Shown here: positions 34,715-60,747 of the stretch, one piece after another
How positions within the stretch are numbered: the stretch's first letter is position 1
Layout: the number at the start of each line of letters is the position of its first letter
Origin: an uncultured Candidatus Saccharibacteria bacterium
GTDB lineage: Bacteria; Patescibacteriota; Minisyncoccia; Phycocordibacterales; XYD1-FULL-46-19
Assembly: GCA_964510655.1 (NCBI GenBank)
Contig: CAZEAY010000001.1
Location: 33,421 to 97,420 of the forward strand
Direction: 5' to 3'
DNA length: 64,000 nt
Notes under the pieces: generated by a model
The model's input: the letters and a program-made list of their open reading frames with translations, nothing else
What the model was told of the DNA's origin: nothing
Database searches by the model: none
Made by a program: the position numbers and the translations under genes

Positions 34715-34751
34715 GCAGGAGAAAATCGACAAAGTTGATTTTGAAATTTTT

Positions 34752-44511: not shown

Positions 44512-44553
44512 TTTCTAAAGAAAAAAGAGAACCCGGAACGATGGTCGTTCCGG
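44512..44553 (-). terminator. intrinsic terminator of the GC-rich minus-strand ORF
   Basis: Hairpin cccggaacga-tggt-cgttccggg, followed on the minus strand by a T-rich run. Confidence 0.7.
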
Positions 44554-44579
44554 GCTAGCATGGTAGATGCTGGGGGGGT

Positions 44580-45056: not shown

Positions 45057-45162
45057 TTCTCCTTGTTTGCAGTGATAGTTGATCTATCCCGCTGTTAGTC
45101 TTTTTTCATAATAACAGATAAATTGATTGGTGTCAATTTGATGGAAAATTATCTGACAAATA

Positions 45163-45192
45163 GAAAAACCGCCCAAAAGGGCGGTTTTTCTA
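45163..45192. terminator. terminator downstream of rpsA
   Basis: aaaaaccgcccaaaagggcggttttt. Confidence 0.75.
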
Positions 45193-45223
45193 TTATTCTA
45201 CATTCTCTATATTCTTTAATCTT

Positions 45224-46393
45224 TTATTCTGCCTTCACTTCCTCTTTCTTGTTTGGATCTTGGAAGTTCAACGTCATGCGTTGTTCCTTGGCCTCAAAAA
45301 GATTGATGGTAAAGGAATAGGTTTTGCCGAGTTCCAATTTTCCGCGCAAATCTTCTTCCGATTTGAATTCCGAAATGTGGACTAAACCAGCTACACCTTC
45401 TTCAATGGAAACCAAAGCGCCATGCTTGTTGTACTTAATGATTACACCCTTTACCGTGTCACCCTTCTTGTACTTCTTAGCCGCTTCGTTCCATGGGTTT
45501 TCTTTCAAAGCTTTGAGAGACAAAGAGATTTTTCCATCCTTGATTTCAATCACTTTAGCTTTTACCTTGTCGCCAACCTTGAAGAGCTCTTTAGGGTTTT
45601 CTACTAAGGCCCAGTCAATTTCGGAAATGTGTACCAATCCTTCCAAACCTTCTTCTACTTTAATAAAGATACCAAAGTCTACGGCGCCAGTGACTTCACC
45701 TTCTACCACGTCACCAACGACATATTTCTCTACAATTTCCTTTTTAGATTTATTGTCGGAATTCTTTTCGGAGAAAATCAGTTTACCTTCTTTAGGATCA
45801 GCCCCAATGATCGACATGGCCATGCGGGTGCCCACAAACTTGCGAAGTTCTTCCATAATGCGATCTTTGTCACCGTCCAAAACTCTTGGATAGTGCTCAG
45901 GCTTAAGCTGAGATGATGGTAAGAAACCATCGATACCTTGCCATTCGACAATCAAACCACCTTTGTTGGCATCTTTGACCAACAATTCCATCACCGTTTT
46001 TTGTTTAATGGCTTTTTCGGCTTCGCTCCAGATGATAGCGGTCTTGGCTTCCTTTAGGGAAAGTTCAATATAGCCATTTTCCCCTTCCGACTCTACGACT
46101 TTGGCGGTCACACTGTCGCCAATGTTCACTTTTTTAATAATATCCTTAGCATTCAAAAATTCTCGGCCAAAGATAATACCAGTACCAAAAGGCACGATGT
46201 CTATATATAGAGCCATCTTGTCTTTGCCAATTACAGCTCCTTCTACCAAAGCCCCTGGCTCTGGACGACTGGCGGTAGCCTTTAAGATATCTTCCATCGC
46301 CCCCTTAGCTTCTTCGGCTTTGGTTGTATCTTTAGTTTCTTCCTCCATATCTTCTGCTACGATTTTTTTTACTTTTTTAGTTGTTTCTGTCAT
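45224..46393 (-). CDS. rpsA: 30S ribosomal protein S1 (short, about four S1 domains)
   Basis: Repeated S1-domain pattern (G.xVxGxVxxIxxFGxFVxl…GLxHISE). Confidence 0.8.
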   Translation of the reverse strand: MTETTKKVKKIVAEDMEEETKDTTKAEEAKGAMEDILKATASRPEPGALVEGAVIGKDKMALYIDIVPFGTGIIFGREFLNAKDIIKKVNIGDSVTAKVVESEGENGYIELSLKEAKTAIIWSEAEKAIKQKTVMELLVKDANKGGLIVEWQGIDGFLPSSQLKPEHYPRVLDGDKDRIMEELRKFVGTRMAMSIIGADPKEGKLIFSEKNSDNKSKKEIVEKYVVGDVVEGEVTGAVDFGIFIKVEEGLEGLVHISEIDWALVENPKELFKVGDKVKAKVIEIKDGKISLSLKALKENPWNEAAKKYKKGDTVKGVIIKYNKHGALVSIEEGVAGLVHISEFKSEEDLRGKLELGKTYSFTINLFEAKEQRMTLNFQDPNKKEEVKAE

Positions 46394-46673
46394 AAAAAAA
46401 ACGCCTTAACCCACAAATTGTGAGCCCTGCCACCTAGTTGCGTCCCTAGAGCTAAATGCTTTAGCAAATCTTGTATAGACAACGTCAGTTAAGCAAGTGA
46501 TTAATAATAGATATATAGTATCAAAAATACTCTAAAAATACAAGGATTTCTCAAAGACCTCCTCTTTTTTTAAGAAATTTTATGAGCTTGACTTTTGAAT
46601 CCTCCTTAACTATACTATATATATAGTTAAATTTTATTAATTAATTTTAACTATAATAATTCATAATTAAAGT

Positions 46674-47837
46674 ATGAAATACACAGTTGGAAAGAAAATA
46701 AAAGCGACTAGTCCTCAAGGAGAGGCGTATTTGGCGTTTTTACCCGAACTAATAAATAAGGATTTTACTTGGGAGGATAAAAAAATAGATATACTGCTAG
46801 AGTCCGCTCGTGGCTGGCTTGGTGAACTAAATGCTTACTCGAAATTAATTCCTAACGTCGATTTTTTTATAGAGTCACATATCGCAAAAGAAGCAGAACA
46901 GTCTAGTCGAATTGAGGGGACAAAAACCACACTAGAAGAACTCTATCTTGATAAGGGTGATTTTGATGATCAGGAAAAAATAAATGATCAGGAAGAAGTG
47001 AAGAACTATATTAATGCATTAAATTATTCTATAAAAAATATTACAACTCCTGGCGAGATTCCACTTTCTACAAGACTTGTTTGTGGTGCTCATAAAATTT
47101 TACTTGATAATGTTCGAGGATATAAACGTCACCCTGGTGAGATAAGAAAAATACAAAATAAAATTGGAGGAAGCCAGGGTTCTCTTAAAGATGCTATCTT
47201 TATTCCTCCAACCCCAGAAATGGTTTCTGATCTTTTGAATGATTTGGAAAAATTTTGGCACAATAAAAATCTTGAAATTCCAGATCTGATAAAAGTCGCA
47301 TTGTCACATTATCAATTCGAAACAATACACCCATTTGAAGACGGAAATGGGAGAATCGGTCGTTTGATAATTATATTGCAACTCGTAACGTATGGGATGC
47401 TACAGAAACCAACATTGTACCTCTCTGATTATTTTGAGAAAAATAGATCGGCTTATTATGATGCTCTTTCTCGCGTACGAGAATCTGGGGACATGGAACA
47501 TTGGATAAAATTTTTCCTTGTTGGTGTCACTGAAACGGCCAAAAAAGGAAAAGAAACGTTAGAAAGTATCATTGATTTAAAAAAGAAATACGAAGATCTA
47601 ATCGATGGATATATGGGAGTTAAACAACAAAAACTTGGTAAGAAGTTGTTAAAATTCCTGTTTGCTAAGCCATTAGTAACAGCAAAAGATGTTGAGCAAA
47701 TGCTTGGAGTTACGAAACCAACAGCCACTGCTCTTGTAAACAAGCTGGCAGAAGCAAATATTTTAAAGGAGAGAACTGGATATAAAAGAAATCGAGTTTA
47801 TGCGCTCGATGAGTATTTAGCATTATTCAATAGTTAA
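46674..47837 (+). CDS. fic: Fic family protein (AMPylase-type), with an N-terminal domain and a C-terminal wHTH
   Basis: Canonical Fic motif HPFEDGNGRIGR and a candidate inhibitory SxxxEG motif (SSRIEG) in the N-terminal region. Confidence 0.85.
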   Translation: MKYTVGKKIKATSPQGEAYLAFLPELINKDFTWEDKKIDILLESARGWLGELNAYSKLIPNVDFFIESHIAKEAEQSSRIEGTKTTLEELYLDKGDFDDQEKINDQEEVKNYINALNYSIKNITTPGEIPLSTRLVCGAHKILLDNVRGYKRHPGEIRKIQNKIGGSQGSLKDAIFIPPTPEMVSDLLNDLEKFWHNKNLEIPDLIKVALSHYQFETIHPFEDGNGRIGRLIIILQLVTYGMLQKPTLYLSDYFEKNRSAYYDALSRVRESGDMEHWIKFFLVGVTETAKKGKETLESIIDLKKKYEDLIDGYMGVKQQKLGKKLLKFLFAKPLVTAKDVEQMLGVTKPTATALVNKLAEANILKERTGYKRNRVYALDEYLALFNS

Positions 47838-47845
47838 AATTATGT

Positions 47846-49603
47846 ATGGAAAATTTTAGTCATATAACATCAATGATCTGGAGTATAGCCGACATCTTGC
47901 GTGGCGGCTGGAAACAGCATGAATACCAGGACGTAATATTACCCTTGGTAGTTTTGAAACGTCTTGATTCTATCCTTGCAGACACTAAAGCTTCGGTCCT
48001 CGAGAAATACAACGAGTACAAAGGCAAAGTGAATGACCTTGACCCTATCTTGAAGAAGACCTCAGGCACAGCCTTCTACAATATCTCTGATTACGATTTC
48101 AAAACCATTCTTGGAGAACCAAAGCATCTCGCAAAGAACTTCAAGCAGTACATCAACGGGTACAGCAAGAATATCCAGGATATCTTTGAGAAGTTTGATT
48201 TCAGCAAACAGCTCGAGCGTCTCGAAGGTGGTGATCTCTTGTTTTACGTGATTCAGGAATTGAATAAAGTGGATTTGCACCCTTCAAAGGTAGATAACTA
48301 TCAAATGGGACACATCTTTGAAGAGCTTCTCCGAAAGTTTTCTGAAATGTCCAACGAAACCGCTGGAGAGCACTACACGCCAAGAGATGTGATCGGACTT
48401 ATGACCGAGATGCTCTTCTCGCCTGATAAGAAGGATCTCAAGAAACCTCATGTTATCAAAAAGATTTACGACCCTGCCTGTGGTACCGGCGGTATGCTTT
48501 CTGTTGCCAAGGATTACATTCTAGAAAACATAAACAAAGAAGCTGACATTTTCCTCTACGGACAGGAACTCAACTCGGTGACTTACGCTATGGCCAAGTC
48601 AGACATGCTTATCAAGGGCGATAACCCAGACCTTATTCGAGGCGGAGAAAAGGACCACTCAAAAGCAAGCACACTCGCTAACGATCAATTTTTTGCAGAA
48701 GTGTTTGATTATGGTCTATCAAATCCGCCCTACGGAGTTGATTGGAAGAAAGATAAAGATGCTGTTGAGCGTGAAGCCTCACGTGGATACGCTGGGCGAT
48801 TTGGTGCAGGCACTCCTCGCATCTCTGATGGACAGCTTTTATTCTTGCAGCACTTGATCTCAAAGATGAAGCCTGAGAAAGACGGTGGCTCACGTATAGC
48901 AATCGTCCACAACGGGTCCCCACTATTTACTGGTGATGTCGGTAGTGGAGAAAGCGAAATCCGAAGATGGATTCTTGAAAAGGATTTGCTCGAAGCAATC
49001 GTTGCATTGCCTGATCAGCTTTTCTATAACACAGGTATCAATACATATCTCTGGTTTGTCACCAACAGAAAATCAAAAGAACGAAAAGGTAAGGTCCAGC
49101 TCATTGATGCCCGTACCTTCTTTAAGAAGACTCGCAAAAGTCTTGGTAGCAAGCGACATGAGATTGATTCAGATCATAAAAAACAAATCTTGGATTTGTA
49201 TGAGAAGTTTGAGGAAAATGAATACTCAAAGATTTTCAAGACAACAGATTTTGCATACAGACAGATTCAAATTGAGCGTCCACTCAAGGATGAGAAGGGG
49301 AATTTTGTAAAAAACAAGAAAGGAGAAGTGGAGACGGATAAGTCACTTCGTGATCATGAAAATGTTCCATATGATATGGACATAAAAGAATACTTCAACA
49401 AAGAGGTAAAGCCATATGTGCCCGATGCATGGATCAATGAATCAGTCCGAGATCACAAAGACGGAAAGGTTGGCATTGTGGGCTATGAAATCCCATTCAC
49501 TCGCTACTTTTACAAATATGAGGCACCACGAAGCCTTGAAGAAATCGAGACTGATATAGAAAAGGTCGAGAACGAATTGCTCATTCTCCTAAAGCAACTT
49601 TAA
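47846..49603 (+). CDS. hsdM: type I restriction-modification system methyltransferase subunit HsdM
   Basis: N-terminal HsdM_N pattern and N6-MTase motifs (DPACGTGGML motif I, NPPYG motif IV). Confidence 0.9.
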   Translation: MENFSHITSMIWSIADILRGGWKQHEYQDVILPLVVLKRLDSILADTKASVLEKYNEYKGKVNDLDPILKKTSGTAFYNISDYDFKTILGEPKHLAKNFKQYINGYSKNIQDIFEKFDFSKQLERLEGGDLLFYVIQELNKVDLHPSKVDNYQMGHIFEELLRKFSEMSNETAGEHYTPRDVIGLMTEMLFSPDKKDLKKPHVIKKIYDPACGTGGMLSVAKDYILENINKEADIFLYGQELNSVTYAMAKSDMLIKGDNPDLIRGGEKDHSKASTLANDQFFAEVFDYGLSNPPYGVDWKKDKDAVEREASRGYAGRFGAGTPRISDGQLLFLQHLISKMKPEKDGGSRIAIVHNGSPLFTGDVGSGESEIRRWILEKDLLEAIVALPDQLFYNTGINTYLWFVTNRKSKERKGKVQLIDARTFFKKTRKSLGSKRHEIDSDHKKQILDLYEKFEENEYSKIFKTTDFAYRQIQIERPLKDEKGNFVKNKKGEVETDKSLRDHENVPYDMDIKEYFNKEVKPYVPDAWINESVRDHKDGKVGIVGYEIPFTRYFYKYEAPRSLEEIETDIEKVENELLILLKQL

Positions 49604-49608
49604 ATTAT

Positions 49609-50904
49609 ATGCAAACACTCAAGCTTACAAAAAAATATGAGAAATATCCTGAATATAAAGATTCGGGTGTTGAGTGGTTGGGTAATATTCCTGAAAATTG
49701 GAGTGTTTATAAAATGAAGACTTTAGGAAGTTTTTCAGCGAGCGGAATTGACAAAAAAATTAATGATAAAGAAATTCCAGTAAAGCTTCTTAATTACACT
49801 AATGTCTATGGAAATAAGGCGTTAACTATAGACGGTAAAACGGCTTTTGGAGAAACAACAACGACAAAGGACAAGATTACTGATTATTCAATAAAAAAAG
49901 GTGATATATATTTTACACCAAGCTCAGAGACAGAAAAGGATATTGGTGTATCTAGTGTTGCACTTGAGGATATCCCGGATGCGGTTTTTAGTTACCACCT
50001 AATAAGATTTAGGCCAAAAGCTGCAATTGATATTTCATTTAGTAAATATTTCACAAATAATTCGTGGGTTTTATCTCAGTTTTCATCGCTTTGCAATGGA
50101 ACAACAAGAATGGTGGTAAATAGAGATGATTTTAAAAATATAAACGTTGTTTTACCAACTAAAAAAGATCAAGAAAAAATTGCTGATTATCTTAATGAAA
50201 AAACTTCTGTTATTGATGAGATAATAGAAAAAAAAGAAAAGTTGATTGAGCTTTCGAAAGAAAAAAGAACCTCTGTAATCAATACCGTAATTTCTGAAGT
50301 AGTTGGAGAAAAAGGAAAACTAAAAAACTACATACAACTAAATCCTTCAAAAAAAGGAATTTCTGCAATTGGTCCTGAGGACGCGGTTTCCTTTGTTCCT
50401 ATGGAAGCAATCTCAGAACTTGGAGAACTACAAATACAAGAAAGAAAATACAAAGATGTAAGTAGTGGCTTCACCTACTTTAAAGATGGAGATGTTGTGC
50501 TTGCAAAAATAACTCCTTGCTATGAAAACGGTAAGGCGGGAGTAATTAGAGGACTGAAAAATGGATTTGGGTTTGGGACGACTGAATTCATGGTGCTTCG
50601 ACCAAGCAACAAGATTCTTGCTGATTACCTTTATTACGTAGTCTTTTCAGATAAATTCAGAAAGATGGGTGAAGTTGAGATGAGAGGAACAGCAGGGCAA
50701 AAACGAGTAACCTCATCATTTGCAATGAACTACGGACTATTTATTCCAGATATTAAAACTCAAGAAAAGATTGTGGTCGAGTTAAATAAAAAAATGAAGA
50801 TGTTTGATGTCGCTATAGCAAAAGTTGAAACTTCAATTTCATACCTCAAAGAATTTAAGACTTCCCTCATATCAAATGTTGTAACGGGAAAAATTAAAGT
50901 ATAA
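49609..50904 (+). CDS. hsdS: type I restriction-modification specificity subunit HsdS (two TRDs)
   Basis: Position in the operon, two repeated half-structures with conserved central and C-terminal coiled regions (…LIELSKEKRTSVI…, …KTSLISNVVTGKIKV), and very AT-rich composition. Confidence 0.8.
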   Translation: MQTLKLTKKYEKYPEYKDSGVEWLGNIPENWSVYKMKTLGSFSASGIDKKINDKEIPVKLLNYTNVYGNKALTIDGKTAFGETTTTKDKITDYSIKKGDIYFTPSSETEKDIGVSSVALEDIPDAVFSYHLIRFRPKAAIDISFSKYFTNNSWVLSQFSSLCNGTTRMVVNRDDFKNINVVLPTKKDQEKIADYLNEKTSVIDEIIEKKEKLIELSKEKRTSVINTVISEVVGEKGKLKNYIQLNPSKKGISAIGPEDAVSFVPMEAISELGELQIQERKYKDVSSGFTYFKDGDVVLAKITPCYENGKAGVIRGLKNGFGFGTTEFMVLRPSNKILADYLYYVVFSDKFRKMGEVEMRGTAGQKRVTSSFAMNYGLFIPDIKTQEKIVVELNKKMKMFDVAIAKVETSISYLKEFKTSLISNVVTGKIKV

Positions 50905-50908
50905 ATAT

Positions 50909-53050
50909 ATGATTAATAAAGTCTTAAAAATAAAGAATATAGGGAAATTCAAAAACCTTTGTTCAGTCAATGACGACCTGGCTTTTAAGACGTACACCCT
51001 GGTTTTTGGACCTAATAAACATGGAAAAACTACTTTTACATCAATACTCAAGTCTTTGAAGACGTCAGAGATTGATCACCTAATAGGACGAAAAACATTT
51101 GGATCAACAGCAAATGATAGCCAAGAGTATGAAATATTAATGAGTGATGGTTCTAAATATACATACAATTCTGGACTGAAAAATAAAGATATCGAAATAT
51201 TTGATAATGATTTCATAAATAGAAATGTTTTTTCTGGTGACAGTATTGATAAAAGCAATAGATCTAGTCTTTATAGCATCCTACTCGACAGTGCAAATGT
51301 AAAACTAAAGGAAGAGATAGACGAACTTGAGAGAAAACAAACAACTATCTCCACTGAAAAAACTGGAGCAAAAAATGCTATTGATAATTTTGATGACTTT
51401 ATAAAGTTAAATGCAACTGATGAAATAGCTGATATCGCAACAAAAATTGAAGAGAATAATAACAAGATTAAGCAATATAATAACCAAGCTCAATTAGACA
51501 TATTACGTAAGAAATCAAAGTTTCATTTTGATTTTGTGGCCTTTGAGGAGAAATTGAAACAAACCATTGATACCAAGCTTGAAAGTAAAATAAATGAACA
51601 CATAAAGAATAATCATAAAAACAATACAAAGAGTAAAGATTTTCTAAAAATTGGTACAGATTTGCTTGCCGATAGTAATGATTGTCCATTTTGTGGCCAA
51701 TCCTTAGACAACGTGACTGATCACATTACTGTCCTGAAGACTTTTTTCAGTGATACCTACAAAGAAATTCAAGAAAGTATTAATGAATCAATAAATCTTT
51801 TTAGTGAAATTGATATTGAAAAAGAGATCAATGCTTTCAAGGTTTGTGGATTAGAGTTTCCTAAATTAGATATTGTTAATTTGGGAGCTAACTTTTCAAC
51901 AGCGAAAGATAAAATAAAAGAGAAACAGACAGACTTATCAAAAGATATAAAAATCGGAGAAGATCAGGGTTATATCTCGTTTAAGAAAGAAATAATTAGC
52001 CTTAAGAAAGAAATTGATGATCTTACAACAAAAAGCCTAGATATAGTTGCTCTAGACAAAGAGACTTCGAGATTAAACCTCAACAAAGACAGATTTTCTG
52101 CTATTGGCATTGCAAAATTTAATACCTACAAAGAAAAAGAGAATGCATTTGAGGAAAACAAAAGAGTAATCAGTGAAAAAACCGATAAGTTAAAACTGGA
52201 CCTTAATACTCTTTTTAAAAAGCATCTTGAAAAGATAAATGATGTTCTTCGTATTTCAGGTGCAAATTTCAAACTAAAAAAACTCGATGCTAACACGAAC
52301 AGAAGCTTGAGAGATCATATGTGCGAATATAGTTTTGTTTTTGATAACACGCATGATGTAAGTGTAGAGGGTCAAGATAATACTCCCAATTTTAAAAATA
52401 CCTTAAGCGACTCTGATAAAAGAGTTCTCGCTTTCGCCTTTTTCGTAGCAAAAATAAAATCTGAAAACGATATCACTAATAAAATTATTGTATTAGATGA
52501 TCCTTTTACAAGTCTTGATGAAGACCGAAAAGACAGCATGATTAACCTTATTAAAGACCTTGGTTTTAAGCAGGTAATAATCTTGTCACATAGTAAAAGG
52601 TTTGTGGGTAGATGCTTTGAGTTGTTTCCAAGAGATGTAATGAAAACTCTAAAATTGCACTGCTCTGCAGCAAGCGGATCGCTTTTTGAGGTTATGGATG
52701 TCAAAAAAGAAATACTAGATACTGACATTGAAAAAGATCTTGCTTATATAAGAAATTCTATACACAAAAACATTAACCTAAAAGAAGCATGTCAAAAAGT
52801 TAGACTCTGCATTGAACAAATATTGAAAGAAAAATATTCAGATTTTATAAAGCCAGAAAATCTTGCAGGTAATGCATCAATTGGTACCTTTTTATTTGAT
52901 ATCGGAGCTAGGTGTCCAGCAAAAAAAGATATAGAAGGTGGGTATTGGCATGATGATCATCACGCACAAAATCCAACCAATACAGCTGATGACACGGAAA
53001 GGTTGAATAAACTTAAATACTTTATAGAAACCATTTTACCCACAATATAA
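50909..53050 (+). CDS. RloC/PrrC-like ABC-type ATPase with a coiled coil and CxxC zinc hook (AAA_13-like), embedded in the type I R-M operon; putative anticodon nuclease
   Basis: Walker A VFGPNKHGKTT. Long coiled-coil middle region carrying CPFCGQ. ABC signature-like LSDSDKR, Walker B IIVLDDPFTSLD and H-loop ILSHS. About 150-aa C-terminal domain with Rx3E (RLCIEQ) and HDDHH. Sits between hsdS and hsdR, as prrC and rloC do. Confidence 0.5.
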   Translation: MINKVLKIKNIGKFKNLCSVNDDLAFKTYTLVFGPNKHGKTTFTSILKSLKTSEIDHLIGRKTFGSTANDSQEYEILMSDGSKYTYNSGLKNKDIEIFDNDFINRNVFSGDSIDKSNRSSLYSILLDSANVKLKEEIDELERKQTTISTEKTGAKNAIDNFDDFIKLNATDEIADIATKIEENNNKIKQYNNQAQLDILRKKSKFHFDFVAFEEKLKQTIDTKLESKINEHIKNNHKNNTKSKDFLKIGTDLLADSNDCPFCGQSLDNVTDHITVLKTFFSDTYKEIQESINESINLFSEIDIEKEINAFKVCGLEFPKLDIVNLGANFSTAKDKIKEKQTDLSKDIKIGEDQGYISFKKEIISLKKEIDDLTTKSLDIVALDKETSRLNLNKDRFSAIGIAKFNTYKEKENAFEENKRVISEKTDKLKLDLNTLFKKHLEKINDVLRISGANFKLKKLDANTNRSLRDHMCEYSFVFDNTHDVSVEGQDNTPNFKNTLSDSDKRVLAFAFFVAKIKSENDITNKIIVLDDPFTSLDEDRKDSMINLIKDLGFKQVIILSHSKRFVGRCFELFPRDVMKTLKLHCSAASGSLFEVMDVKKEILDTDIEKDLAYIRNSIHKNINLKEACQKVRLCIEQILKEKYSDFIKPENLAGNASIGTFLFDIGARCPAKKDIEGGYWHDDHHAQNPTNTADDTERLNKLKYFIETILPTI

Positions 53051-53054
53051 ACAT

Positions 53055-56021
53055 ATGACAACAAAAACAAACACAAAAGAATCAGGATTTGAAGAATTTA
53101 TTGAGCAAGAGCTCAAGAGTCTTCATTCATACCGGACTCGATCAACCTCTTCATACAACAAAGAGCTTTGCATGGATACCGAGTTGGTCCTCGAGTTTAT
53201 TCATACAACACAGAAAGATAGTTGGGATAAGTTGGTTGAACAATATGGTGGCGATGTTGCCAATCGATTTTTGGCTAGACTAGATGAAGAGCTTCTTTCT
53301 CGTGGACTTCTCAGTGTCCTGCGAGAAGGTGTGAAGGATAGAGGTGTAACTATTCAACTTGCGTATCTCAAACCAGAAAATGATAAAAACCCCGAGACAC
53401 TTGCCGACTACGCAGGGAATATCTTGAGCGTAATGCGACAGGTCAAATATAGTGTCAAGAACGAGAACTCTATCGACATGGTTATATTTGTAAACGGTCT
53501 TCCTCTCTTTACCTCTGAACTTAAGAATCAATTCACCAGACAGAATGTTATCAATGCAATTTCACAATACAGAACTGATCGTGATCAGAAAGAAAAGTTG
53601 CTTGGATTTAAGAGATGCCTCACACACTTTGCGGTGGATACCGAACAGGTATACATGACCACTAAACTCTCGGGACTTACCACCTACTTCTTGCCATTCA
53701 ACAAAGGCAATAACGGATCATCTGGTAACCCTGAAGCACCGAAAGGAAAATACAAAACTTATTATCTCTGGGAAGAAATCTGGTCCAAGGATAGTATCTT
53801 TGACCTGATTGGTAATTTCATACAAGATATAACAGAAGAAAAAGAAGACAAGAATGGAAGGCGACATAGGGATGAAAAAATCATCTTCCCTCGATATCAT
53901 CAATTGGAAACAGTTAAGAGAATTGTTGAAGATGCCAAAGCTTATGGTGCGGGTAAGAATCATCTCATTCAGCACAGTGCTGGGTCTGGGAAGAGTAATA
54001 CTATTGCTTGGACCGCTCATCGATTAGCGGGACTTCATAATATTGGAGGTAAAAACGTCTTTGACGGGGTAATTGTTGTAACCGATCGACGAGTACTTGA
54101 TAGACAATTATCTGAGGCGGTGGACAGTTTTAGTGCGACCGTTGGCCTCGTTAAACACGCAGATAACTCAGCACAACTTGCTGATTATTTAAGAAATGGC
54201 ATCAAAATTATCACAACAACGCTCCAAAAGTTTCCTGTTATTGTCGATACAGTAGAAGCTCTTGAAGGTAGAAAGTTTGCAGTGATTATCGATGAGGCTC
54301 ATTCATCACAATCAGGTGAATCGGCAGCCGACCTGCGCCAGGTCCTCACACTTGATGAAGCTGAAAAAGAAAGTCAGGAAGAAGAGAAAGCATTTAAGAC
54401 GATTGAAGATCAGATCGTCGAACGTATGAAGGCTCGAAAAGTAGCATCTCCAAACCTGTCATTCTTTGCCTTTACTGCAACACCAAAACAAAAGACTCTT
54501 GAGCTTTTCGGTACCGAAGATGCGGTAACAGGTAAATTCGGTCCCTTCTCCCTCTATTCAATGAAGCAAGCCATCGAAGAGAAGTTTATTCTCGATGTGC
54601 TTAAGAATTACACAACTTACGAAACTTACTTCGGACTTTTGAAGAAGGTTGAGGATGACCCAGAATTCGACAAGAAAAAGGCTCAGCGACTTATGGTTGG
54701 ATATGTTGAGCGACATGAGCATGCTATCGATAAGAAGGTGGCCATTATGGTTGAACACTTCGAGGAAAAGATCGCCTCACTTATTAACGGCAAGGCAAAA
54801 GCTATGGTGGTGACCAAGTCTCGACTTCATGCGGTCCGTTATAAGATTGCATTTGATAAGTATCTAAAAGAAAAAGGATATGCACACAAAGCCCTCGTAG
54901 CGTTCTCTGGAACGGTTAAGGATGTTGATACCAAGCTTGAATACACCGAGGGCCAGATGAACAAGGTGCCTGAGAGTCAGACCGCTGAAGAGTTCAAAAA
55001 TGATAACTATAAGTTCCTAATCGTTGCCGAGAAGTTCCAGACTGGATTCGACCAGCCACTTCTCTCGGTAATGTATGTAGATAAGAAACTTGGTGGTGTT
55101 GGTGCGGTCCAGACTTTGTCTCGACTTAATCGAACCACATATAACAAAGAAGAAACCTTCGTTCTTGATTTCGTAAACCAGACTGATGATATCAAGGAAG
55201 CCTTCCAACCTTACTACACAACTACTGTTCTCTCAGAAGCGACAGATCCAAACATCCTGCATGATCTTGAGCGAGATGTGCGTGGTTTCAAGTTCTTCAC
55301 TGATTTTGAGGTTAATGGCTTTATAGACGAGCTTTATTCAAGAGCAACTCCTGACAAGCTCAATTATATTATCGATGGTGTAGTCTCTCGCATCAATGAA
55401 GAGAACCTCACTGAAGAAGAAATGGAGAGTTTCAAGTCTACGGTATTTGATTATCTCAAAAAATACGCATTCATCTCACAGATTGTAACCTTCGAAGATC
55501 CTCAGCTGGAAAAGTTGTTCATATTCTTAAAGTATCTGATTAGAAAGCTTCCTAAGCGTGAAAACCCACTACCATATGAGGTCCTTCAGGCAATAGATAT
55601 GGAAACATACCGAGTGGAAAAGAAAGGTGAAATGCATCTTCAGCTCGAAAATGCTGAAGGTCTTATTGAGCCTATGGGCGGTGGTGATGCCAAAAGTTCA
55701 TCTGAAGATGAAAGAGATGCTCTGTCTCGCATCATCAAAGAAGTAAATGAAAGATACGGTACCAACTTCAATGACGGTGACCGAGTGATCCTTAATGACT
55801 TGAGTAAGCGACTACTTGAAAGCGAGATCCTTCAGGGTTCAGTAATGAACAACAGCAAAGATGCCGCTAAGTTAAAATTCGATCAGCTCTTCCAGGACGA
55901 GCTCGTGAGCGTGCTTGATAAGCATTTTAGCTTGTATCAAAAGTTGGACCAGAGTCCAGAGCTCAAGAAGTTTGTGCAAGAGCGTGTGTTCGAATTTGTG
56001 GTTAAGAAAATGAAAAAATAA
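53055..56021 (+). CDS. hsdR: type I restriction enzyme R subunit HsdR
   Basis: N-terminal PD-(D/E)xK nuclease motif (DMVIFVNGLPLFTSELK). SF2 helicase motifs (SAGSGKS, DEAH in VIIDEAHSSQ). Confidence 0.9.
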   Translation: MTTKTNTKESGFEEFIEQELKSLHSYRTRSTSSYNKELCMDTELVLEFIHTTQKDSWDKLVEQYGGDVANRFLARLDEELLSRGLLSVLREGVKDRGVTIQLAYLKPENDKNPETLADYAGNILSVMRQVKYSVKNENSIDMVIFVNGLPLFTSELKNQFTRQNVINAISQYRTDRDQKEKLLGFKRCLTHFAVDTEQVYMTTKLSGLTTYFLPFNKGNNGSSGNPEAPKGKYKTYYLWEEIWSKDSIFDLIGNFIQDITEEKEDKNGRRHRDEKIIFPRYHQLETVKRIVEDAKAYGAGKNHLIQHSAGSGKSNTIAWTAHRLAGLHNIGGKNVFDGVIVVTDRRVLDRQLSEAVDSFSATVGLVKHADNSAQLADYLRNGIKIITTTLQKFPVIVDTVEALEGRKFAVIIDEAHSSQSGESAADLRQVLTLDEAEKESQEEEKAFKTIEDQIVERMKARKVASPNLSFFAFTATPKQKTLELFGTEDAVTGKFGPFSLYSMKQAIEEKFILDVLKNYTTYETYFGLLKKVEDDPEFDKKKAQRLMVGYVERHEHAIDKKVAIMVEHFEEKIASLINGKAKAMVVTKSRLHAVRYKIAFDKYLKEKGYAHKALVAFSGTVKDVDTKLEYTEGQMNKVPESQTAEEFKNDNYKFLIVAEKFQTGFDQPLLSVMYVDKKLGGVGAVQTLSRLNRTTYNKEETFVLDFVNQTDDIKEAFQPYYTTTVLSEATDPNILHDLERDVRGFKFFTDFEVNGFIDELYSRATPDKLNYIIDGVVSRINEENLTEEEMESFKSTVFDYLKKYAFISQIVTFEDPQLEKLFIFLKYLIRKLPKRENPLPYEVLQAIDMETYRVEKKGEMHLQLENAEGLIEPMGGGDAKSSSEDERDALSRIIKEVNERYGTNFNDGDRVILNDLSKRLLESEILQGSVMNNSKDAAKLKFDQLFQDELVSVLDKHFSLYQKLDQSPELKKFVQERVFEFVVKKMKK

Positions 56022-56024
56022 GTG

Positions 56025-56459
56025 ATGGAAAATCTTTCTGAAAAAGTTGTTGAAAAAGCTATTTTGAAACACCTTGCCTTAAAAGGATGGGATTATAATA
56101 TTAAAACTAAGGGACTTCATGAGCATGGTTGTGATATTGTTGTAACTAGCTCGAAAAATAAAAATAAAGCGACAAGATTTTTGATAGAATGTAAGGGTAG
56201 GTCATATGCAAAATCTGCAAAGTCTATTGCTGAAACTAATTTTTTGTTTGCTCTTGGTCAGTTGATTACTAGAATGAGTGTAATTGCAAGACATGCTTAT
56301 AAATATGGTCTTGGATTGCCAGAAGAAAGTGCAAAAAAGGCGTTACACAGGATTCCATGGCAGGTTGCAAGACAGTTATGTCTGTATATTTTTTCTGTAG
56401 ATGATATGGGTAGAGTGACAGAGTATTCCCCTAGGGATTTTAAGAAAACTAATAAATAA
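56025..56459 (+). CDS. small PD-(D/E)xK nuclease-fold protein (Mrr-cat/YraN-like core) abutting the hsdR stop
   Basis: Candidate catalytic D (HGCDIVV) about 17 residues before an ExK (IECKG). Its ATG lies 3 nt after the hsdR TAA. Confidence 0.4.
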   Translation: MENLSEKVVEKAILKHLALKGWDYNIKTKGLHEHGCDIVVTSSKNKNKATRFLIECKGRSYAKSAKSIAETNFLFALGQLITRMSVIARHAYKYGLGLPEESAKKALHRIPWQVARQLCLYIFSVDDMGRVTEYSPRDFKKTNK

Positions 56460-56518
56460 GACCGTTTTTCTTTTTATTTGATATACTAAATGCAGTAGAA
56501 TTATTTAAAAAATAGCTT

Positions 56519-57376
56519 ATGTGGAATTTTTCTAAAATATTAAAAATTTCTTTTGGGGTTGTGGCGGTTGTCTGTGTTATTTCTTTCTGGACAGTCGTTT
56601 CGTATTATGCGGGAAAAGAAATTGTGTCTGATAACTCGGGGATGGAGTCGGAGTCTTTATTTAGTGATGAGAGTTGTAATGTGGCGGGGATAAATTTGCA
56701 TGGCGATATTGTGACTTACCATACTAATGATGCTTATGATGATCAGGGAAATCTGATGTATGATCAGACGTCGTCTGATGAGGTGGCGTGGTTTATTGAA
56801 GAGGCACTGGCCAATGATAATATAAAAGCGATTGTGGTGGATGTGGATTCCTATGGTGGATCGCCAGTGGCAGCGGAAGAAATTGCTAATGATATTAAAA
56901 ATAGTAAAAAACCAGTCTTCGCCTATATTCGCGATGTAGGACTTTCCGCAGCTTATTGGGCGGTGAGTGGTGCTGATAAAATATTTGCTTCAAAAAATTC
57001 TGATGTTGGCTCGATTGGGATAACTAGTTCGTATGTAAGTAATGCCGAAAAGAATAAAAAAGATGGTCTTACTTTTGTCGATCTGAGTTCTGCTAAATAT
57101 AAAGATTCGGGTACGCCCGATAAGGTTTTGACGGCCGAGGAACGGGCTTTGTTTTTGCGGGACATAAATATTATGCATGAAAATTTTATTGAAGCCGTGG
57201 CAAGTAATCGCAAACTAGCAACCTCTACTGTTAAAAGTATCGCCGATGGATCAAGTGTTTTGGGAATGAAGGCCAAAGAGCTCGGCCTGATTGATGAGAT
57301 TGGTGGCCCGGCCGAAGTGGAAAAATATTTACAGACAAAAATAGGTGTAAAACCCGAAATTTGTTGGGGGAATTAA
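56519..57376 (+). CDS. sppA: signal peptide peptidase SppA (S49, 36K type)
   Basis: N-terminal TM and the S49 pattern (…VVDVDSYGGSPVAAEEI…AAYWAVSGADKIFASKNSDVGSIGI…). Confidence 0.8.
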   Translation: MWNFSKILKISFGVVAVVCVISFWTVVSYYAGKEIVSDNSGMESESLFSDESCNVAGINLHGDIVTYHTNDAYDDQGNLMYDQTSSDEVAWFIEEALANDNIKAIVVDVDSYGGSPVAAEEIANDIKNSKKPVFAYIRDVGLSAAYWAVSGADKIFASKNSDVGSIGITSSYVSNAEKNKKDGLTFVDLSSAKYKDSGTPDKVLTAEERALFLRDINIMHENFIEAVASNRKLATSTVKSIADGSSVLGMKAKELGLIDEIGGPAEVEKYLQTKIGVKPEICWGN

Positions 57377-57393
57377 GTTTAAAAATAAATATC

Positions 57394-57744
57394 ATGTCTA
57401 ATAATAACGAGTTGGAAAATATTAAAGAACAGATCCAAGAGTTGTCGGACCGATTGGATCTGTTTGCAGAACGGCAGAATGCTCAATTTACTGAGATGAT
57501 GTTTTTATTAAATGATATCAGTGCCAATGTTTTAGAGAAGAGGAACGAAAGCCAGATGTCAGATGACGAACTGTATGAAGAAGCAGAAATAGCTGTAATT
57601 CAAGCTAAAAAGGCTTCAGCTTCTTTTTTGCAAAGAAAGTTTAAAATTGGTTACGCTCGAGCTGCTAATTTGATGGATTTACTTGAAAAAAATGGAGTCA
57701 TTGGTACCGCTGAAGGGTCTTATCCTCGTAAAGTTTTAGGGTAA
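57394..57744 (+). CDS. small protein with a C-terminal FtsK-gamma-like winged-helix domain
   Basis: …EAEIAVIQAKKASASFLQRKFKIGYARAANLMDLLEKNGVIG… matches the FtsK gamma (KOPS-binding) domain pattern. Start set at the internal ATG (MSNNNE). Confidence 0.5.
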   Translation: MSNNNELENIKEQIQELSDRLDLFAERQNAQFTEMMFLLNDISANVLEKRNESQMSDDELYEEAEIAVIQAKKASASFLQRKFKIGYARAANLMDLLEKNGVIGTAEGSYPRKVLG

Positions 57745-57868
57745 AAGATTGTGGGGTAAATATTTTTAAATTAATTTGGTAATTAAAAAGAGCGTCAATC
57801 GTATTTCAGATTGGCGCTCTTTGGGTGTATGCTCTTCGTCTTCACGAGAGTCTCTACTCTTTCTGGAT

Positions 57869-58063
57869 TTACAAACTAATGTCTTCATCCGGAATGTTGC
57901 AACGGCTTCCGCAGGCAGTGCAGTAGTTGTTGCGTTTGTAGATTCTATTGCTACAGGGGCAGAAGAATTTCTTTATTTCCTCCAATTCTTTCCCGCACAC
58001 CGAGCAAAACTTCTCATCATCAAAGAACAATTCAGTCCTATGATCTGGACACATTTTCGCCAT
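57869..58063 (-). CDS. hypothetical zinc-ribbon protein (four CxxC pairs)
   Basis: CPDH…CSVC…CPC…CTAC in 64 aa. A downstream hairpin lies at about 57790-57830. Confidence 0.45.
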   Translation of the reverse strand: MAKMCPDHRTELFFDDEKFCSVCGKELEEIKKFFCPCSNRIYKRNNYCTACGSRCNIPDEDISL

Positions 58064-58411
58064 AGATCTGAGAGTGTGGATTTGCCAACTCCCTATTCAC
58101 CTCCTAGAACCAGATAAATTATTTCTCGAAAGGAATGTCTGGTTATCTGAAAAATATCCTAACAGAAAGACAGTAGATGTCAATATGAAAAAACACACCG
58201 TCCGAGGAGGGTGTGTGGGTGAAAGGGAGAGAAGAGAAAAGGTGGGTTTGGTTGGCTAGGTAGCGAAGGGGTGGGGGAAGGGTGATGAAGTATTCATCGG
58301 GTGGGGGGGTGGCTACTGAGCGAACCAAACTTTTTTGTCTACTCTCGGAAAGATCAACTAACTACAGTATATACCTGTCAAATATCTTGTCAACAAAACT
58401 GTGGATAACTT

Positions 58412-58438
58412 CGGAAGGTTTCGCCTTCCGTTTTTTTA
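58412..58438 (+). terminator. intrinsic terminator ending an unannotated plus-strand transcript
   Basis: cggaaggtttcgccttccg followed by T7. Confidence 0.7.
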
Positions 58439-58582
58439 ATTTTTTTAGTGTAATTTTTCGATGAAGAAGACGGAGCTGTGTATAACTTCTTGGAGTTTTG
58501 ATTTTAATTGAGATAAAATTAATGTAGGTCGATTAATTTCGAATTCTCTATTGTTAAAAATTATTAGTTAAATCAAAGATAG

Positions 58583-58774
58583 ATGAAATTTTTAAATTGG
58601 CTAACTGTCATTTTAGTCATCGTCGGTGGTCTTAACTGGGGGCTTGTCGGCTTGGCTCAATATGACTTGGTACAAGCTCTCTTTGGTAGTATTGCTGGTG
58701 CTGCCAACCTTGTTTATATCTTGGTCGGGCTTTCAGCGGTCTATCTTCTTTTCCGAATCAAGAGTTTGGTCTAA
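58583..58774 (+). CDS. DUF378 family small membrane protein
   Basis: Two TM helices with the family pattern (…VIVGGLNWGLVGL…). Confidence 0.65.
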   Translation: MKFLNWLTVILVIVGGLNWGLVGLAQYDLVQALFGSIAGAANLVYILVGLSAVYLLFRIKSLV

Positions 58775-58853
58775 GACCATATTGATTCAGATAAAAAAGA
58801 TTCAGATAAAAAACATCCTGCTTTGGTGGGGTGTTTTTTTATCCACTACCTGA

Positions 58854-59303
58854 TTGGTGATTTTGCAGTATTATATAATCATGCCTAGTTGGATAATTTT
58901 TGCTTTATTGTCGGCGGTTTGTGCGGCTGCCGTAGCAATTTTTGGTAAAATAGGAATTTCTAAGGTGGACAGTACTTTGGCTACCACCTTGCGCGCCATC
59001 GTGATGGCCGGTTTCCTGGTGATCACTTCGCTTTTTTTGAAAAAATTTGATAATTGGCAAAATTTTGATTCTCGTGCCCTCACTTTTATTTTATTGTCAG
59101 GCATCGCCGGAGCGATGTCTTGGCTTTTTTATTTTTTTGCTTTAAAAAAGGGACCAACATCTGGTGTAGCCGCCCTCGATCGAACCAGTGTGGTGTTTGT
59201 GATTATTTTTTCTGTTTTGTTTTTGTCAGAAAAACTAACGTGGAAGATGGCGATTGGTGCCGGTCTAATCGCATTTGGAGCCATTTTTATGGTTTTGCCT
59301 TAA
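58854..59303 (+). CDS. EamA/DMT superfamily small transporter (4 TM)
   Basis: 149 aa, four TM helices, EamA-like half-transporter pattern. Confidence 0.55.
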   Translation: MVILQYYIIMPSWIIFALLSAVCAAAVAIFGKIGISKVDSTLATTLRAIVMAGFLVITSLFLKKFDNWQNFDSRALTFILLSGIAGAMSWLFYFFALKKGPTSGVAALDRTSVVFVIIFSVLFLSEKLTWKMAIGAGLIAFGAIFMVLP

Positions 59304-59324
59304 CAGACTACTAATTTTGTTTTT

Positions 59325-59723
59325 ATGAATAATGCTTATAGTTGGTATGGACGCTTGATTAAACCGTCTTGGGCACCGCCATCGTGGGTCTTTGGTCCAA
59401 TTTGGACTTTTCTCTACATTATTATTGCTGGAACTTTTGGGACGGTTTTTTATAAGGTTCTAACCAAACAGTGGCCGGCGATGGTGGCCCTGCCTTTTGT
59501 TTTAAATTTAATTTTCAACTTAATTTTTACGCCGATTCAGTTTGGTTTACAAAACAACTATTTGGCGGCGGTAGATATTTTGTTGGTTTTAGGGACTTTG
59601 GTCTGGGCGCTTATTGTGGTTTATAAATATGCACCGTGGATTACTTGGGCTAATCAACCCTATTTATTGTGGGTGGTGATTGCTACCACCTTACAAATTA
59701 CTGTGACTTTTTTAAACCGTTAG
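59325..59723 (+). CDS. tspO: TspO/MBR family tryptophan-rich sensory protein
   Basis: W…LIKPSWAPPSWVFGPIWTFLY… signature. Confidence 0.75.
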   Translation: MNNAYSWYGRLIKPSWAPPSWVFGPIWTFLYIIIAGTFGTVFYKVLTKQWPAMVALPFVLNLIFNLIFTPIQFGLQNNYLAAVDILLVLGTLVWALIVVYKYAPWITWANQPYLLWVVIATTLQITVTFLNR

Positions 59724-59724
59724 T

Positions 59725-60231
59725 ATGACAAAAACTATCAGGGTCAACGACAAAATGCAAAAGGGATATGAATATTCTCTTAGTGAACCCGTGGGAAAAA
59801 ATTTCGCTAAAGATTTTAAACCCGACTTAACACCGAAACAAATGTTGGCACTGGGAGTTTTTGGTGGAAAATATATGACTGATTGTGTGAAAGAATTTCC
59901 GGCTGATTGGTATGCGAAGGCCAAACTTTGTCCGAGTAAACATGACCCAAAACTCAATCTTTTTGGTGTGAATGCGAGTCAACCTTTGTCGGTGTGGCAG
60001 AAAAAGGGTTGGATTCATCCGGCTGATCCGCGAGGCTGGTTTCAGTGGTATTGTCGGTATTATTTGGGCCGGAGATTGCCTGGAGAAGACGAGAAACAGA
60101 TTAAACGGTGGAAGGCGATTGGGCGACATATTGCCCAAGTGAAAAAGAATTGTCGGGTGGGGGATATTTCTTGCCGACCAAAACAACGACAAGCCATCTT
60201 GCACTGGGCTTATGATAGTCGAAAGATGTAA
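59725..60231 (+). CDS. conserved hypothetical protein (Trp/Gly-rich; WFQWY motif)
   Basis: 168-aa ORF whose start overlaps the tspO stop; no family recognised. Confidence 0.4.
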   Translation: MTKTIRVNDKMQKGYEYSLSEPVGKNFAKDFKPDLTPKQMLALGVFGGKYMTDCVKEFPADWYAKAKLCPSKHDPKLNLFGVNASQPLSVWQKKGWIHPADPRGWFQWYCRYYLGRRLPGEDEKQIKRWKAIGRHIAQVKKNCRVGDISCRPKQRQAILHWAYDSRKM

Positions 60232-60747
60232 AAACCTTAATAACTATGTTATTGCATTATTTTCTAGATATGATATAATACGATTAATTAAATAGAAGAC
60301 GGGAAGGTAAGTTCGTTGAAAAATAAATTCACAGAACCTCCTCTCATCTTTGTCTGCCTGGCGATCGGTAACTCCGGTCTTTTTTTGTGCCACGGTGGCT
60401 AAAGATGAGAGGGGCGTGTGGATAATTACCATCCACTGATTGTTTTAGTCGAAACAATCAGCTCCTCATAATTTAAAAAGTTATGAGAATATTTCGAGCC
60501 ATCGGATTAGGTTTGGTAATTATTTTTCTTCAGTTTTTGGTACCGAGCATTTGGTCCGGACTGGAACACACGACTCTCCAGTTCTTTCAGACTTTGGATT
60601 CGCTCATGGCTTCCTCACAATTGGCCATTGAGAGTGGGTCCCTCATTCCTAATGCGGATAAACTTATTCCGCATTAACAAAATTAGGCTGTCCTTTTGGG
60701 CAGCTTTTTGTTTTGCGATTTTAGCTCTAATTTGCTATAATTACCCT

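Follow-up and report, generated by a model that had tools for sequence, protein, structure and literature searches.

An apparently chimeric type I restriction-modification operon with three putative add-on defence genes in a member of the Patescibacteria

In the prr locus of Escherichia coli the anticodon nuclease PrrC is embedded in EcoprrI, a type IC restriction-modification (R-M) system, in the gene order hsdM-hsdS-prrC-hsdR. The related RloC, studied in Geobacillus kaustophilus and Acinetobacter baylyi, was defined by Davidov and Kaufmann (2008) by ABC-ATPase motifs, a coiled-coil insert with a CXXC hook, an Arg-X3-Glu-X36-52-His triad and a length of 658-897 residues; an internal switch has been reported for it, and in the literature its gene is linked to R-M genes in 8 of 72 cases. 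Proteins of the SoFic family (Shewanella oneidensis SoFic, and E. coli Sofic with the small antitoxin AS1 encoded downstream) are reported to defend through AMPylation-driven abortive infection. More generally, Payne et al. (2024) described as 'guilt by embedding' the occurrence of defence genes inside type I R-M, BREX, DISARM and Hma loci, and PDC families of the PADLOC database derive from such embedding. A stretch of 64,000 nucleotides (the window) from an uncultured Candidatus Saccharibacteria bacterium (GenBank assembly GCA_964510655.1, contig CAZEAY010000001.1, positions 33,421 to 97,420 of the forward strand) carries, at window positions 46674-56459, an island in which genes for a Fic protein, HsdM, HsdS, a 713-residue ATPase, HsdR and a 145-residue protein follow one another. 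With a probability of about three in four, this island is one operon in which a type I R-M scaffold has been joined by three add-on defence genes, a chimera of parts that have separate histories.

The six open reading frames (ORFs) lie in succession on the + strand with intergenic gaps of 8, 5, 4, 4 and 0 nucleotides (nt). An earlier reading of the letters (the original prediction) had described a compact island of six consecutive same-strand genes; the ORFs were found at exactly the coordinates it claimed, and profile matches for all six bore out the gene identities it had proposed. A candidate operon promoter, TTGACT-17-TATACT at 46588..46616 on the + strand, lies 58 nt 5' of the Fic gene and agrees with the consensus at 10 of 12 positions; it is a consensus match only, and comparable sites are not enriched across the region. 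The catalytic motifs of the island genes are all present and intact, and the ratio of nonsynonymous to synonymous divergence (dN/dS) from the closest relatives is 0.02-0.09 for the Fic gene, hsdM, hsdR, the gene of the 713-residue protein and that of the 145-residue protein (orf145). The modules are thus under strong purifying selection, and the parts are functional and horizontally shared. The hsdS-orf713-hsdR junctions are reproduced at 100% identity in an independent Logan assembly (L001), and are therefore not an assembly chimera.

The scaffold consists of three genes. HsdM (47846..49603, + strand; 585 residues), a type I m6A methyltransferase, matches MTase_I at 3.6e-250 and, in Pfam, HsdM_N at 1.3e-24 and N6_Mtase at 2.2e-61; DPACGTGG (residues 209-216) forms its motif I and NPPY (residues 293-296) its motif IV. 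The specificity subunit HsdS (49609..50904, + strand; 431 residues) matches PADLOC Specificity_I at 1e-72 and has two Methylase_S stretches; its layout of a first target recognition domain (TRD1, about 49699-50208), a central conserved region (about 50209-50343) and a second such domain (TRD2, about 50344-50808) is also visible in the identities to relatives. The restriction and translocase subunit HsdR (53055..56021, + strand; 988 residues) contains HSDR_N, SWI2_SNF2, ResIII and T1R_D3-like regions, the nuclease motif D141...E155-x-K157, GSGKS at residues 310-314 and DEAH at residues 413-416; it matches TIGR00348 at 8e-60, its score of 203 being under the subfamily cut-off of 284. Judged by sequence, the three subunits make up a complete type I R-M enzyme, with predicted methylation and restriction activities. 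In enzymes of this type, the two recognition domains of HsdS determine the bipartite DNA target that HsdM2-HsdS methylates, and together with HsdR this complex translocates and cleaves unmethylated incoming DNA; in the window organism, HsdM2S would likewise mark self DNA and R2M2S would cleave unmarked DNA. The HsdM family is very large and has two common length classes, of 584-585 and about 660 residues, and the idea that the short window protein is a deletion mutant of the longer form was rejected, since many members belong to the 584-585-residue class. The two classes differ by a segment of about 75 residues after residue 481, and over residues 1-481 the identity between the window protein and one of 660 residues (P0229) reaches 97%, which suggests recombination inside hsdM near residue 481.

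Between hsdS and hsdR lies the gene of the 713-residue protein (50909..53050, + strand), a candidate RloC-type anticodon nuclease with matches to Pfam AAA_13 (7.5e-25) and PADLOC PDC-S06 (4.8e-51). The protein has a Walker A motif (GPNKHGKT, residues 34-41), a signature motif (LSDS, 499-502), a Walker B motif (IIVLDDP, 526-532) and H561, a coiled-coil insert with the zinc hook CPFC at residues 259-262 (nt 51683-51694), and a C-terminal HEPN-like domain with R632-x3-E636 (nt 52802-52816) and H684/H685. In an alignment of 35 homologues, reaching down to 21% identity, no variation occurs at K40, T42, C259, C262, S500, D530, D531, H561, R632 or E636, while at least 90% of the sequences share H685, which completes an R-x3-E-x48-H triad; the nuclease domain agrees with a HEPN-type fold in the classification of Anantharaman et al. 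(2013). When the family profile was compared with solved structures, it matched the Rad50 ATPase (1e-10) and, over positions 217-303, the Rad50 zinc hook 1l8d (2.5e-3); a PDB sequence search with the single protein gave no match. The JGI annotation labels close homologues 'wobble nucleotide-excising tRNase'. By every sequence test the protein is an RloC, with a predicted nuclease activity, and the earlier designation as RloC-like stands, every defining sequence feature having been found in it. Of the properties of PrrC it has the embedding in a type I operon and lacks the short (341-416 residues), hookless form, so that it is PrrC-like by position but not a PrrC.

The likeness to the prr locus thus lies in the gene order, with a gene for an ABC-ATPase and HEPN-type anticodon nuclease between hsdS and hsdR in one operon, and possibly, by analogy, in the same proposed logic of a latent tRNase that backs up DNA restriction. 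The two loci differ in the hook and coiled coil of the window protein, in an HsdR that is only distantly related to that of the type IC system EcoR124I (E 1.5e-14), and in the added Fic head gene and PD-(D/E)xK tail gene. Embedding in a type I locus is shared with rloC of Campylobacter jejuni, where this minority situation was first seen; most rloC genes, in contrast, are not linked to R-M genes and are thought to be self-regulated through DNA ends. By analogy with characterised RloC and PrrC, the protein would stay silent in healthy cells and would become active if restriction is subverted or fails or if DNA ends accumulate; once activated it would damage tRNA anticodons, leading to a halt of translation and an aborted infection.

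The closest comparison for this gene is provided by four contigs (L082-L085) with homologues of the 713-residue protein at 62-86% identity. In all five closest cassettes, the window and these four, the gene is flanked by hsdS and hsdR, 4 nt away on either side. Of 80 more remote relatives from metagenomes, by comparison, about 15 lie beside hsd genes and none beside a Fic gene, in agreement with the reported rarity of R-M linkage. It might be argued that the 713-residue protein is an ABC-ATPase/HEPN effector other than an anticodon nuclease, perhaps one that targets other RNA, or that it acts independently of R-M, perhaps by itself sensing DNA ends, its place in the operon reflecting co-transfer or co-expression only. 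The best PADLOC match is to the uncharacterised PDC-S06, with weak LmuB matches besides, and the best AAA_13 stretch ends at residue 566 and leaves the C-terminal domain outside the alignment; the internal switch of RloC and its rare linkage to R-M, the latter seen again in the distant relatives, point the same way. Such an effector nevertheless appears unlikely in view of the conservation over 35 homologues of the triad that defines PrrC and RloC, of the constant position in the five closest cassettes, and of the RloC name given to homologues by the JGI annotation. Beside the preferred reading of the protein as an R-M-embedded RloC stands a further observation. A gene for a 400-residue DUF2130 protein occupies the hsdM-hsdS slot of L082 (7518-8720), L083 (7578-8780) and L084 (1838-3040), and in two metagenomic loci that are otherwise unrelated (L131, 4780-5643; L190, 142-846) a DUF2130 gene adjoins a distant homologue of RloC. 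The DUF2130 protein may work together with RloC; no DUF2130 gene is present in the window.

The head gene of the operon (46674..47837, + strand) encodes a 387-residue class II Fic AMPylase of the SoFic type, composed of Fic_N, Fic and a C-terminal winged-helix region. The PADLOC SoFic profile matches residues 19-386 at 1e-116, and the solved SoFic structures 3eqx and 9tcl are matched at E of about 1e-32. The active-site motif, HPFEDGNGRIGR at residues 219-230 (nt 47328-47363), fits HxFx(D/E)GN(G/K)RxxR, and SSRIEG at residues 77-82 (nt 46902-46919) fits the inhibitory (S/T)xxxE(G/N) and aligns with SSRIEN, the inhibitory element in a protein adenylyltransferase chain of known structure (9vjc_A). 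Both the canonical Fic motif and the SxxxEG element named in the original prediction are therefore present, and its description of the protein as regulated is supported by a class II architecture with the inhibitory motif in the same chain. Because it scores 180 with the NCBIfam equivalog model for SoFic, under the cut-off of 550, the protein is regarded as a family member and not as an orthologue of S. oneidensis SoFic. It shares with the SoFic system the domain order, the active site, the class II inhibitory motif and the full-length profile match, and differs from it in heading a type I R-M operon instead of standing alone. A following ORF of the AS1 kind was considered and dismissed, as hsdM starts 8 nt later and leaves no room for one.

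The same arrangement, with Fic as first gene 8 nt from hsdM, is found in the window and in the nine sister loci that retain the 5' end (L082, L083, L085 and L209-L214); the window protein is 92% identical to that of L209, 70% to those of L082-L085 and 59-60% to those of L210 and L214. As in its characterised relatives, the protein would act as an auto-inhibited AMPylating toxin, a second and independent abortive-infection effector of the operon. Alternatively, Fic might be an operon regulator or maintenance factor, whether as a winged-helix repressor, as an AMPylator that tunes HsdR or HsdM in restriction alleviation, or as an addiction module that stabilises the cassette. The sub-threshold MarR_2 and HTH_13 matches of the C-terminal winged-helix region would suit such a role, as would the constancy of Fic as head gene over ten loci although its lineages are only 59-71% identical to one another, the missing space for an antitoxin like that reported beside E. 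coli Sofic, and the low equivalog score. The full-length PADLOC match, the canonical active site and inhibitory motif, and the mode of action reported for the SoFic family argue in the other direction, and a Fic of this kind, in place of an abortive-infection toxin, is considered improbable.

The tail gene, orf145 (56022..56459, + strand), encodes a small PD-(D/E)xK nuclease-like protein of 145 residues with weak matches to Mrr_cat and MTES_1575 (E of about 2e-3; 18.4 bits against a Pfam cut-off of 21, and 18.7 against 38.2, respectively). D38, E56 and K58, the last two forming E56-x-K58, are invariant in 32 homologues, and the order of predicted helices (H) and strands (E), H7-20, E25-29, E39-42, E52-57, H69-88 and E93-99, fits the alpha-beta-beta-beta-alpha-beta core of PD-(D/E)xK nucleases. 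The top Foldseek matches are to XisH (2okf and 2inb; E 9e-4 to about 1e-3, TM score 0.54), found with a model whose confidence score (pLDDT) is only 65, and searches of PDB sequences and of plasmids with orf145 gave no match. The call of a small nuclease in the original prediction was accordingly borne out at the level of motif and fold only. There are 262 homologues at 63-87% identity; few have a source name, these being nearly all Patescibacteria bins and one Margulisiibacteriota, and in a library of 1.84 billion representatives orf145 had 226 matches at E <= 1e-3. Genes homologous to it stand directly after hsdR of unrelated type I systems in L088 and L090, with homology covering 56035-56459, and beside a relic of the HsdR C terminus in L086. 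orf145 is a separate tail module, and its product may add a DNA-directed activity. In P0358 and similar proteins of 220-235 residues the orf145 domain is fused to an N-terminal HARE-HTH domain (hhalign probability 99.9%); the HARE-HTH tail gene of the sister cassettes L210 and L214 was rejected as an orf145 homologue, with an hhalign probability of 0.7%.

That these genes have not travelled together is seen when the sister cassettes are compared part by part. L082-L085 have the order Fic - HsdM (660 residues) - [DUF2130] - HsdS - AAA_13 - HsdR with different flanks in each, the 5' end of L084, including any Fic gene, being lost at the contig end. Within this group the Fic, HsdM and HsdR proteins share 91-97% identity and the window is the outlier, at 70, 84 and 76%, respectively. 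The window RloC, however, is 86% identical to that of L082, which is itself only 78% identical to that of L083, so that a close RloC goes with an HsdM and HsdR of only 84 and 76% identity. Along the sequence, sliding nucleotide identity to L082 is 77-88% from about 50230, in the middle of hsdS, to about 53100, and then falls to 60-74% in hsdR. Window HsdR is instead 93% identical to that of L214 and 89% to that of L210, compared with only 75-76% for the RloC-bearing L082-L085, and HsdM follows this pattern, with 94% identity to L214 and 92% to L210-L213, where HsdR is likewise 89% identical. In L209, Fic (92%) and a 585-residue HsdM (96%) are close to those of the window, with nucleotide homology over 46606-49702 and different flanks. 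HsdS itself is composite, TRD1 being only 23-28% identical to every relative found and TRD2 88% identical to that of L082 and 82% to that of L210, between conserved ends of 65-93%.

The slot between hsdS and hsdR is occupied in L210 by a Ymh-like protein and a trypsin-like protease and in L214 by a PDC-S54 protein, and both have a HARE-HTH protein after hsdR. Homology of the window to L214 covers 47846-49284, 49345-49704, 50166-50264, 50849-50911 and 53053-56021 and ends at the hsdR stop codon; because it stops at 50911 and resumes at 53053, rloC (50909-53050) fills a slot whose edges are the gene boundaries. The exchangeable positions on this backbone are the head gene, the hsdM-hsdS slot, TRD1, TRD2, the hsdS-hsdR cargo slot and the tail gene, and these identity matrices and breakpoints bear out the proposal, made in the original prediction, that the hsdM/hsdR backbone and a specificity and abortive-infection module have separate histories. 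A single such module is too few, since Fic and orf145 are further independent modules. Nor can the acquisition be called recent, as had been suggested: synonymous divergence (dS) from the closest known relatives is 0.8-2.2 for every module, which is near saturation, and none of them can be shown to have arrived recently.

The conserved hsdM/hsdR backbone circulates among Patescibacteria. Proteins 92-97% identical to the N-terminal four-fifths of window HsdM come from bins named Doudnabacteria, a different candidate phylum in the NCBI taxonomy, and others, 77-86% identical, come from bins named Yonathbacteria, Taylorbacteria and Pacebacteria. The former match, across candidate phyla, is much closer than that of the window rpsA to any sampled genome (78-80%). 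The arrangement of same-strand genes between hsd genes is that of the embedded defence genes of Payne et al. (2024) and of TgvAB in Vibrio VPI-2, and the cargo of the window and its sisters matches the embedding-derived PADLOC candidates PDC-S06, PDC-S54 and PDC-M36A. In distinction from those cases, one cassette family of Patescibacteria is here followed at the resolution of breakpoints, with several exchangeable positions on one backbone, among them a head (Fic) and a tail (orf145 or the HARE-HTH protein) that lie outside the hsd genes. Two further features were noted in L214, the closest hsdR relative: after the HARE-HTH gene come genes for a reverse transcriptase of the AbiP2 type (PADLOC 4e-178) and for a PDDEXK_1 protein (14277-17763), and the cassette adjoins a large serine recombinase (117-1724). 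The L214 cassette is part of a larger defence island, which a recombinase possibly mobilised.

Base composition gives a second view of the same mosaic. GC content and its value at third codon positions (GC3) are 0.350 and 0.260 for the Fic gene, 0.422 and 0.461 for hsdM, 0.330 and 0.248 for hsdS, 0.310 and 0.259 for rloC, 0.415 and 0.407 for hsdR, and 0.336 and 0.233 for orf145; 38 other window genes have means of 0.399 (standard deviation 0.036) and 0.357 (0.064). Pooled GC3 is 0.427 for hsdM and hsdR against 0.254 for the other four island genes (z = 10.4), a contrast far above sampling noise, and the composition of the island is bimodal. The estimates made by eye, about 40-44% GC for hsdM and hsdR and AT-rich hsdS, ATPase and small nuclease, match the computed values, and composition is not uniform. 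As for the ctc/gag/aag-type codons ascribed to hsdM and hsdR, CTC and AAG are indeed enriched and GAG is only slightly raised: relative to 35 other window genes, the CTC share of Leu is 0.32 in hsdM and 0.26 in hsdR (0.09 elsewhere), the AAG share of Lys 0.56 in both (0.27) and the ATC share of Ile 0.51 and 0.46 (0.21).

When each gene was compared in codon usage with the other genes of the window by a symmetric chi-square distance, the excess z was 4.6 for hsdM, 3.7 for orf145, 3.5 for hsdR, 3.2 for hsdS, 2.6 for rloC and 1.6 for Fic, with a host-like 1.5 for sppA, the next gene downstream. All six island genes deviate, in two opposite directions. The backbone is thus not the only foreign part, a point on which the original prediction needs correction. 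The view suggested by bulk GC, in which hsdM and hsdR are host-like and only the AT-rich genes foreign, was rejected because the symmetric measure flags all six, and so was the reverse reading obtained from a log-likelihood codon score, a score that favours AT-ending codons.

Neither is the mosaic peculiar to this genome. hsdM and hsdR are GC-richer than the cargo in L082-L085, L210 and L214, whatever the GC of the flanks (0.33-0.43), and in L209, which retains no more than Fic, hsdM and the beginning of hsdS, hsdM again exceeds the other two in GC; since it recurs in all seven measurable sister cassettes, the contrast is a property of the cassette family. It might still be held that gene-specific constraints, and not separate histories, produce the mosaic, for instance a coiled coil rich in Lys, Asn and Ile, rare codons that keep toxin expression low, or differing selection within one co-inherited operon. 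Amino-acid content does contribute, as GC at first and second codon positions is 0.398 and 0.275 in rloC and 0.51-0.53 and 0.30-0.31 in hsdM and hsdR; the GC ranking is the same in every sister cassette, independent of flank GC; Davidov and Kaufmann noted rare codons in rloC genes; and Fic, AT-rich in the window, is GC-richer in L082, L083 and L214. The incongruent gene trees and the sharp shifts of identity at gene boundaries are not expected under such constraints, unrelated cargo genes in the same slot are likewise AT-rich, and the GC3 gap of 0.17 falls at synonymous sites, so that constraint as the source of the mosaic is judged quite unlikely. Separate histories account for it better: composition is mosaic because the parts that were exchanged derive from a pool of genes richer in AT, and it is a family-wide mark of a backbone pool and a cargo pool.

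The surroundings of the island were compared with those in related genomes. Upstream, its immediate neighbour is rpsA (45224-46393, - strand); downstream, it is sppA (56519-57376). Relatives of rpsA place the window in Patescibacteria/Paceibacterota (Nomura-, Vogel- and Taylorbacteria-like), although even the nearest genome sampled is only 78-80% identical in this gene. The gene order pth - lepB - 442-residue gene downstream of rpsA is conserved. On the other side of rpsA, in 26 related Paceibacterota genomes spanning rpsA identities of 64-80%, rpsA divergently adjoins a homologue of the gene at 60628-61362, which codes for a protein with a metallo-beta-lactamase fold, across a gap that is mostly about 80-600 bp and in a few reaches 1.8 kb; homologues of 61939-62184 and/or 62538-62789 come next in most of the 26. 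Within 10 kb of rpsA in these relatives, neither sppA nor any other gene of 46394-60627 was found. rpsA and sppA therefore do bound the island here, as originally stated, and the ancestral junction is not between them but between rpsA and the 60628 homologue. The whole block, whose conservation in the same place would have spoken against a mosaic origin, is not conserved there. As the 26 relatives join rpsA to that homologue, about 14.2 kb (46394..60627) is taken as a lineage-specific block; besides the six-gene cassette it holds sppA and, by Pfam, FtsK-gamma, zinc-ribbon, DUF378, EamA and TspO genes and a 168-residue ORF, and the gene at 60628-61362 forms its right border. The left edge of the cassette lies at about 46588-46616, nucleotide homology beginning at 46606 (L209) and 46623 (L082).

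The cassette is foreign to this locus, as indicated by the absence of the block in relatives, the atypical codons of all six genes and the varied surroundings of related cassettes, which occupy seven different neighbourhoods with the window counted. With respect to an integrase-mobilised island, atypical composition and absence from relatives were found. No integrase or recombinase gene was found within 46394-60627, flanking direct or inverted repeats gave chance-level matches only, and no tRNA or Rfam feature marks the block borders (the nearest tRNA is at 34628-34716). A phage origin was also considered and rejected, IMG/VR containing only relatives of the 713-residue protein at <=29% identity. 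The missing scars, repeats and integrase would fit a cassette that is ancestral at the locus and was lost in the sampled relatives, as would the thin sampling near the organism and the high synonymous divergence from all known relatives. Such losses are very improbable, since the rpsA/60628-homologue adjacency is shared by 26 genomes over a wide range of rpsA identity, codon usage is atypical in all six genes, and related cassettes stand in six other, unrelated neighbourhoods. The genes of 56519-60627, from sppA to the 168-residue ORF, are also missing near rpsA in relatives, and the FtsK-gamma, EamA, TspO and 168-residue genes are host-like by the cruder log-likelihood codon score; the whole set may owe its place to relocation and not to import.

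Several points weigh against the reading of the island as a chimeric R-M and defence operon. The methylation, restriction, tRNA cleavage, AMPylation and nuclease activities of its products are all predicted. Assignment to the RloC/PrrC group follows from defining features, the window protein, which comes from Patescibacteria, being too distant for direct comparison with experimentally studied members; characterised RloC proteins carry an internal switch, usually without an R-M link, so that control by R-M would here be an analogy with PrrC. For orf145, confidence in the structural model is low and the matches to Pfam stay under threshold. The comparison sequences are mostly metagenomic contigs without assigned taxonomy. 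Around the cassette there is no integrase, att repeat or tRNA that would point to a route of transfer for the modules, and since TRD2 also occurs with different cargo (in L210, at 82% identity), its co-transfer with rloC is to be seen as one event and not as a rule. A more far-reaching proposal is doubtful, namely that Patescibacteria share a type I R-M 'carrier' whose conserved gene ends serve as recombinase-free swap anchors and that, in addition, orf145 is an unrecognised accessory subunit of type I enzymes. The anchors would be the hsdM tail, the hsdS ends and the start and stop of hsdR, and the parts swapped between them would be abortive-infection cargo, recognition domains, variants of the head Fic gene and tail genes.

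The locus is clearly a further, if ordinary, case of the known type I operons with embedded defence genes, found in a little-studied lineage. Its additions are modest: a conserved Fic head gene, an uncharacterised tail gene linked to hsdR, and resolution at the level of breakpoints. Patescibacteria have tiny genomes and few defence systems, and it is of interest how their immunity diversifies; here one conserved restriction scaffold has been re-equipped with varied candidate suicide effectors and recognition domains through exchange at gene boundaries. An RloC in the position of PrrC would also offer a natural test of control by an R-M partner against an internal switch alone, and the locus draws attention to a nuclease-like protein that is small, very conserved and associated with hsdR. 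Current concepts are left unchanged and are extended to a poorly studied lineage.

Some minor features of the window may be added. An exact-match look-up of the window rpsA and HsdM products found none on record, probably owing to the choice of start codon. Just 3' of the rpsA stop, at 45159-45194, lies a perfect 16-bp inverted repeat (AATAGAAAAACCGCCC / GGGCGGTTTTTCTATT) that resembles a bidirectional terminator and explains all the weak Rfam matches to leaders and small RNAs there. Between pth and rpsA an insert of about 1.1 kb (44140-45100) is GC-rich (about 50%); in relatives this gap is mostly 11-670 bp, and about 1.4-1.8 kb in three. It contains a 158-residue ORF (44580-45056, - strand) and a 101-residue ORF (44148-44453) of 56% GC, and no Rfam family reaches threshold within it. 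The former ORF has a good ribosome-binding site, matches no Pfam family and departs further in codon usage (z 7.5) than any other gene of the window. Elsewhere, the lowest GC3 of the window (0.213) belongs to a gene for a YgjP-like metallopeptidase (9306-9869), a family that is often linked with type I R-M loci; the neighbours of this gene encode a Pif1-like helicase, a histidine phosphatase and a protein with a metallo-beta-lactamase fold, and are not R-M genes. Among the presumed host genes, the most atypical codons occur in a gene of 49.7% GC for a 527-residue right-handed beta-helix protein (32426-34009, - strand), which may be another foreign gene.

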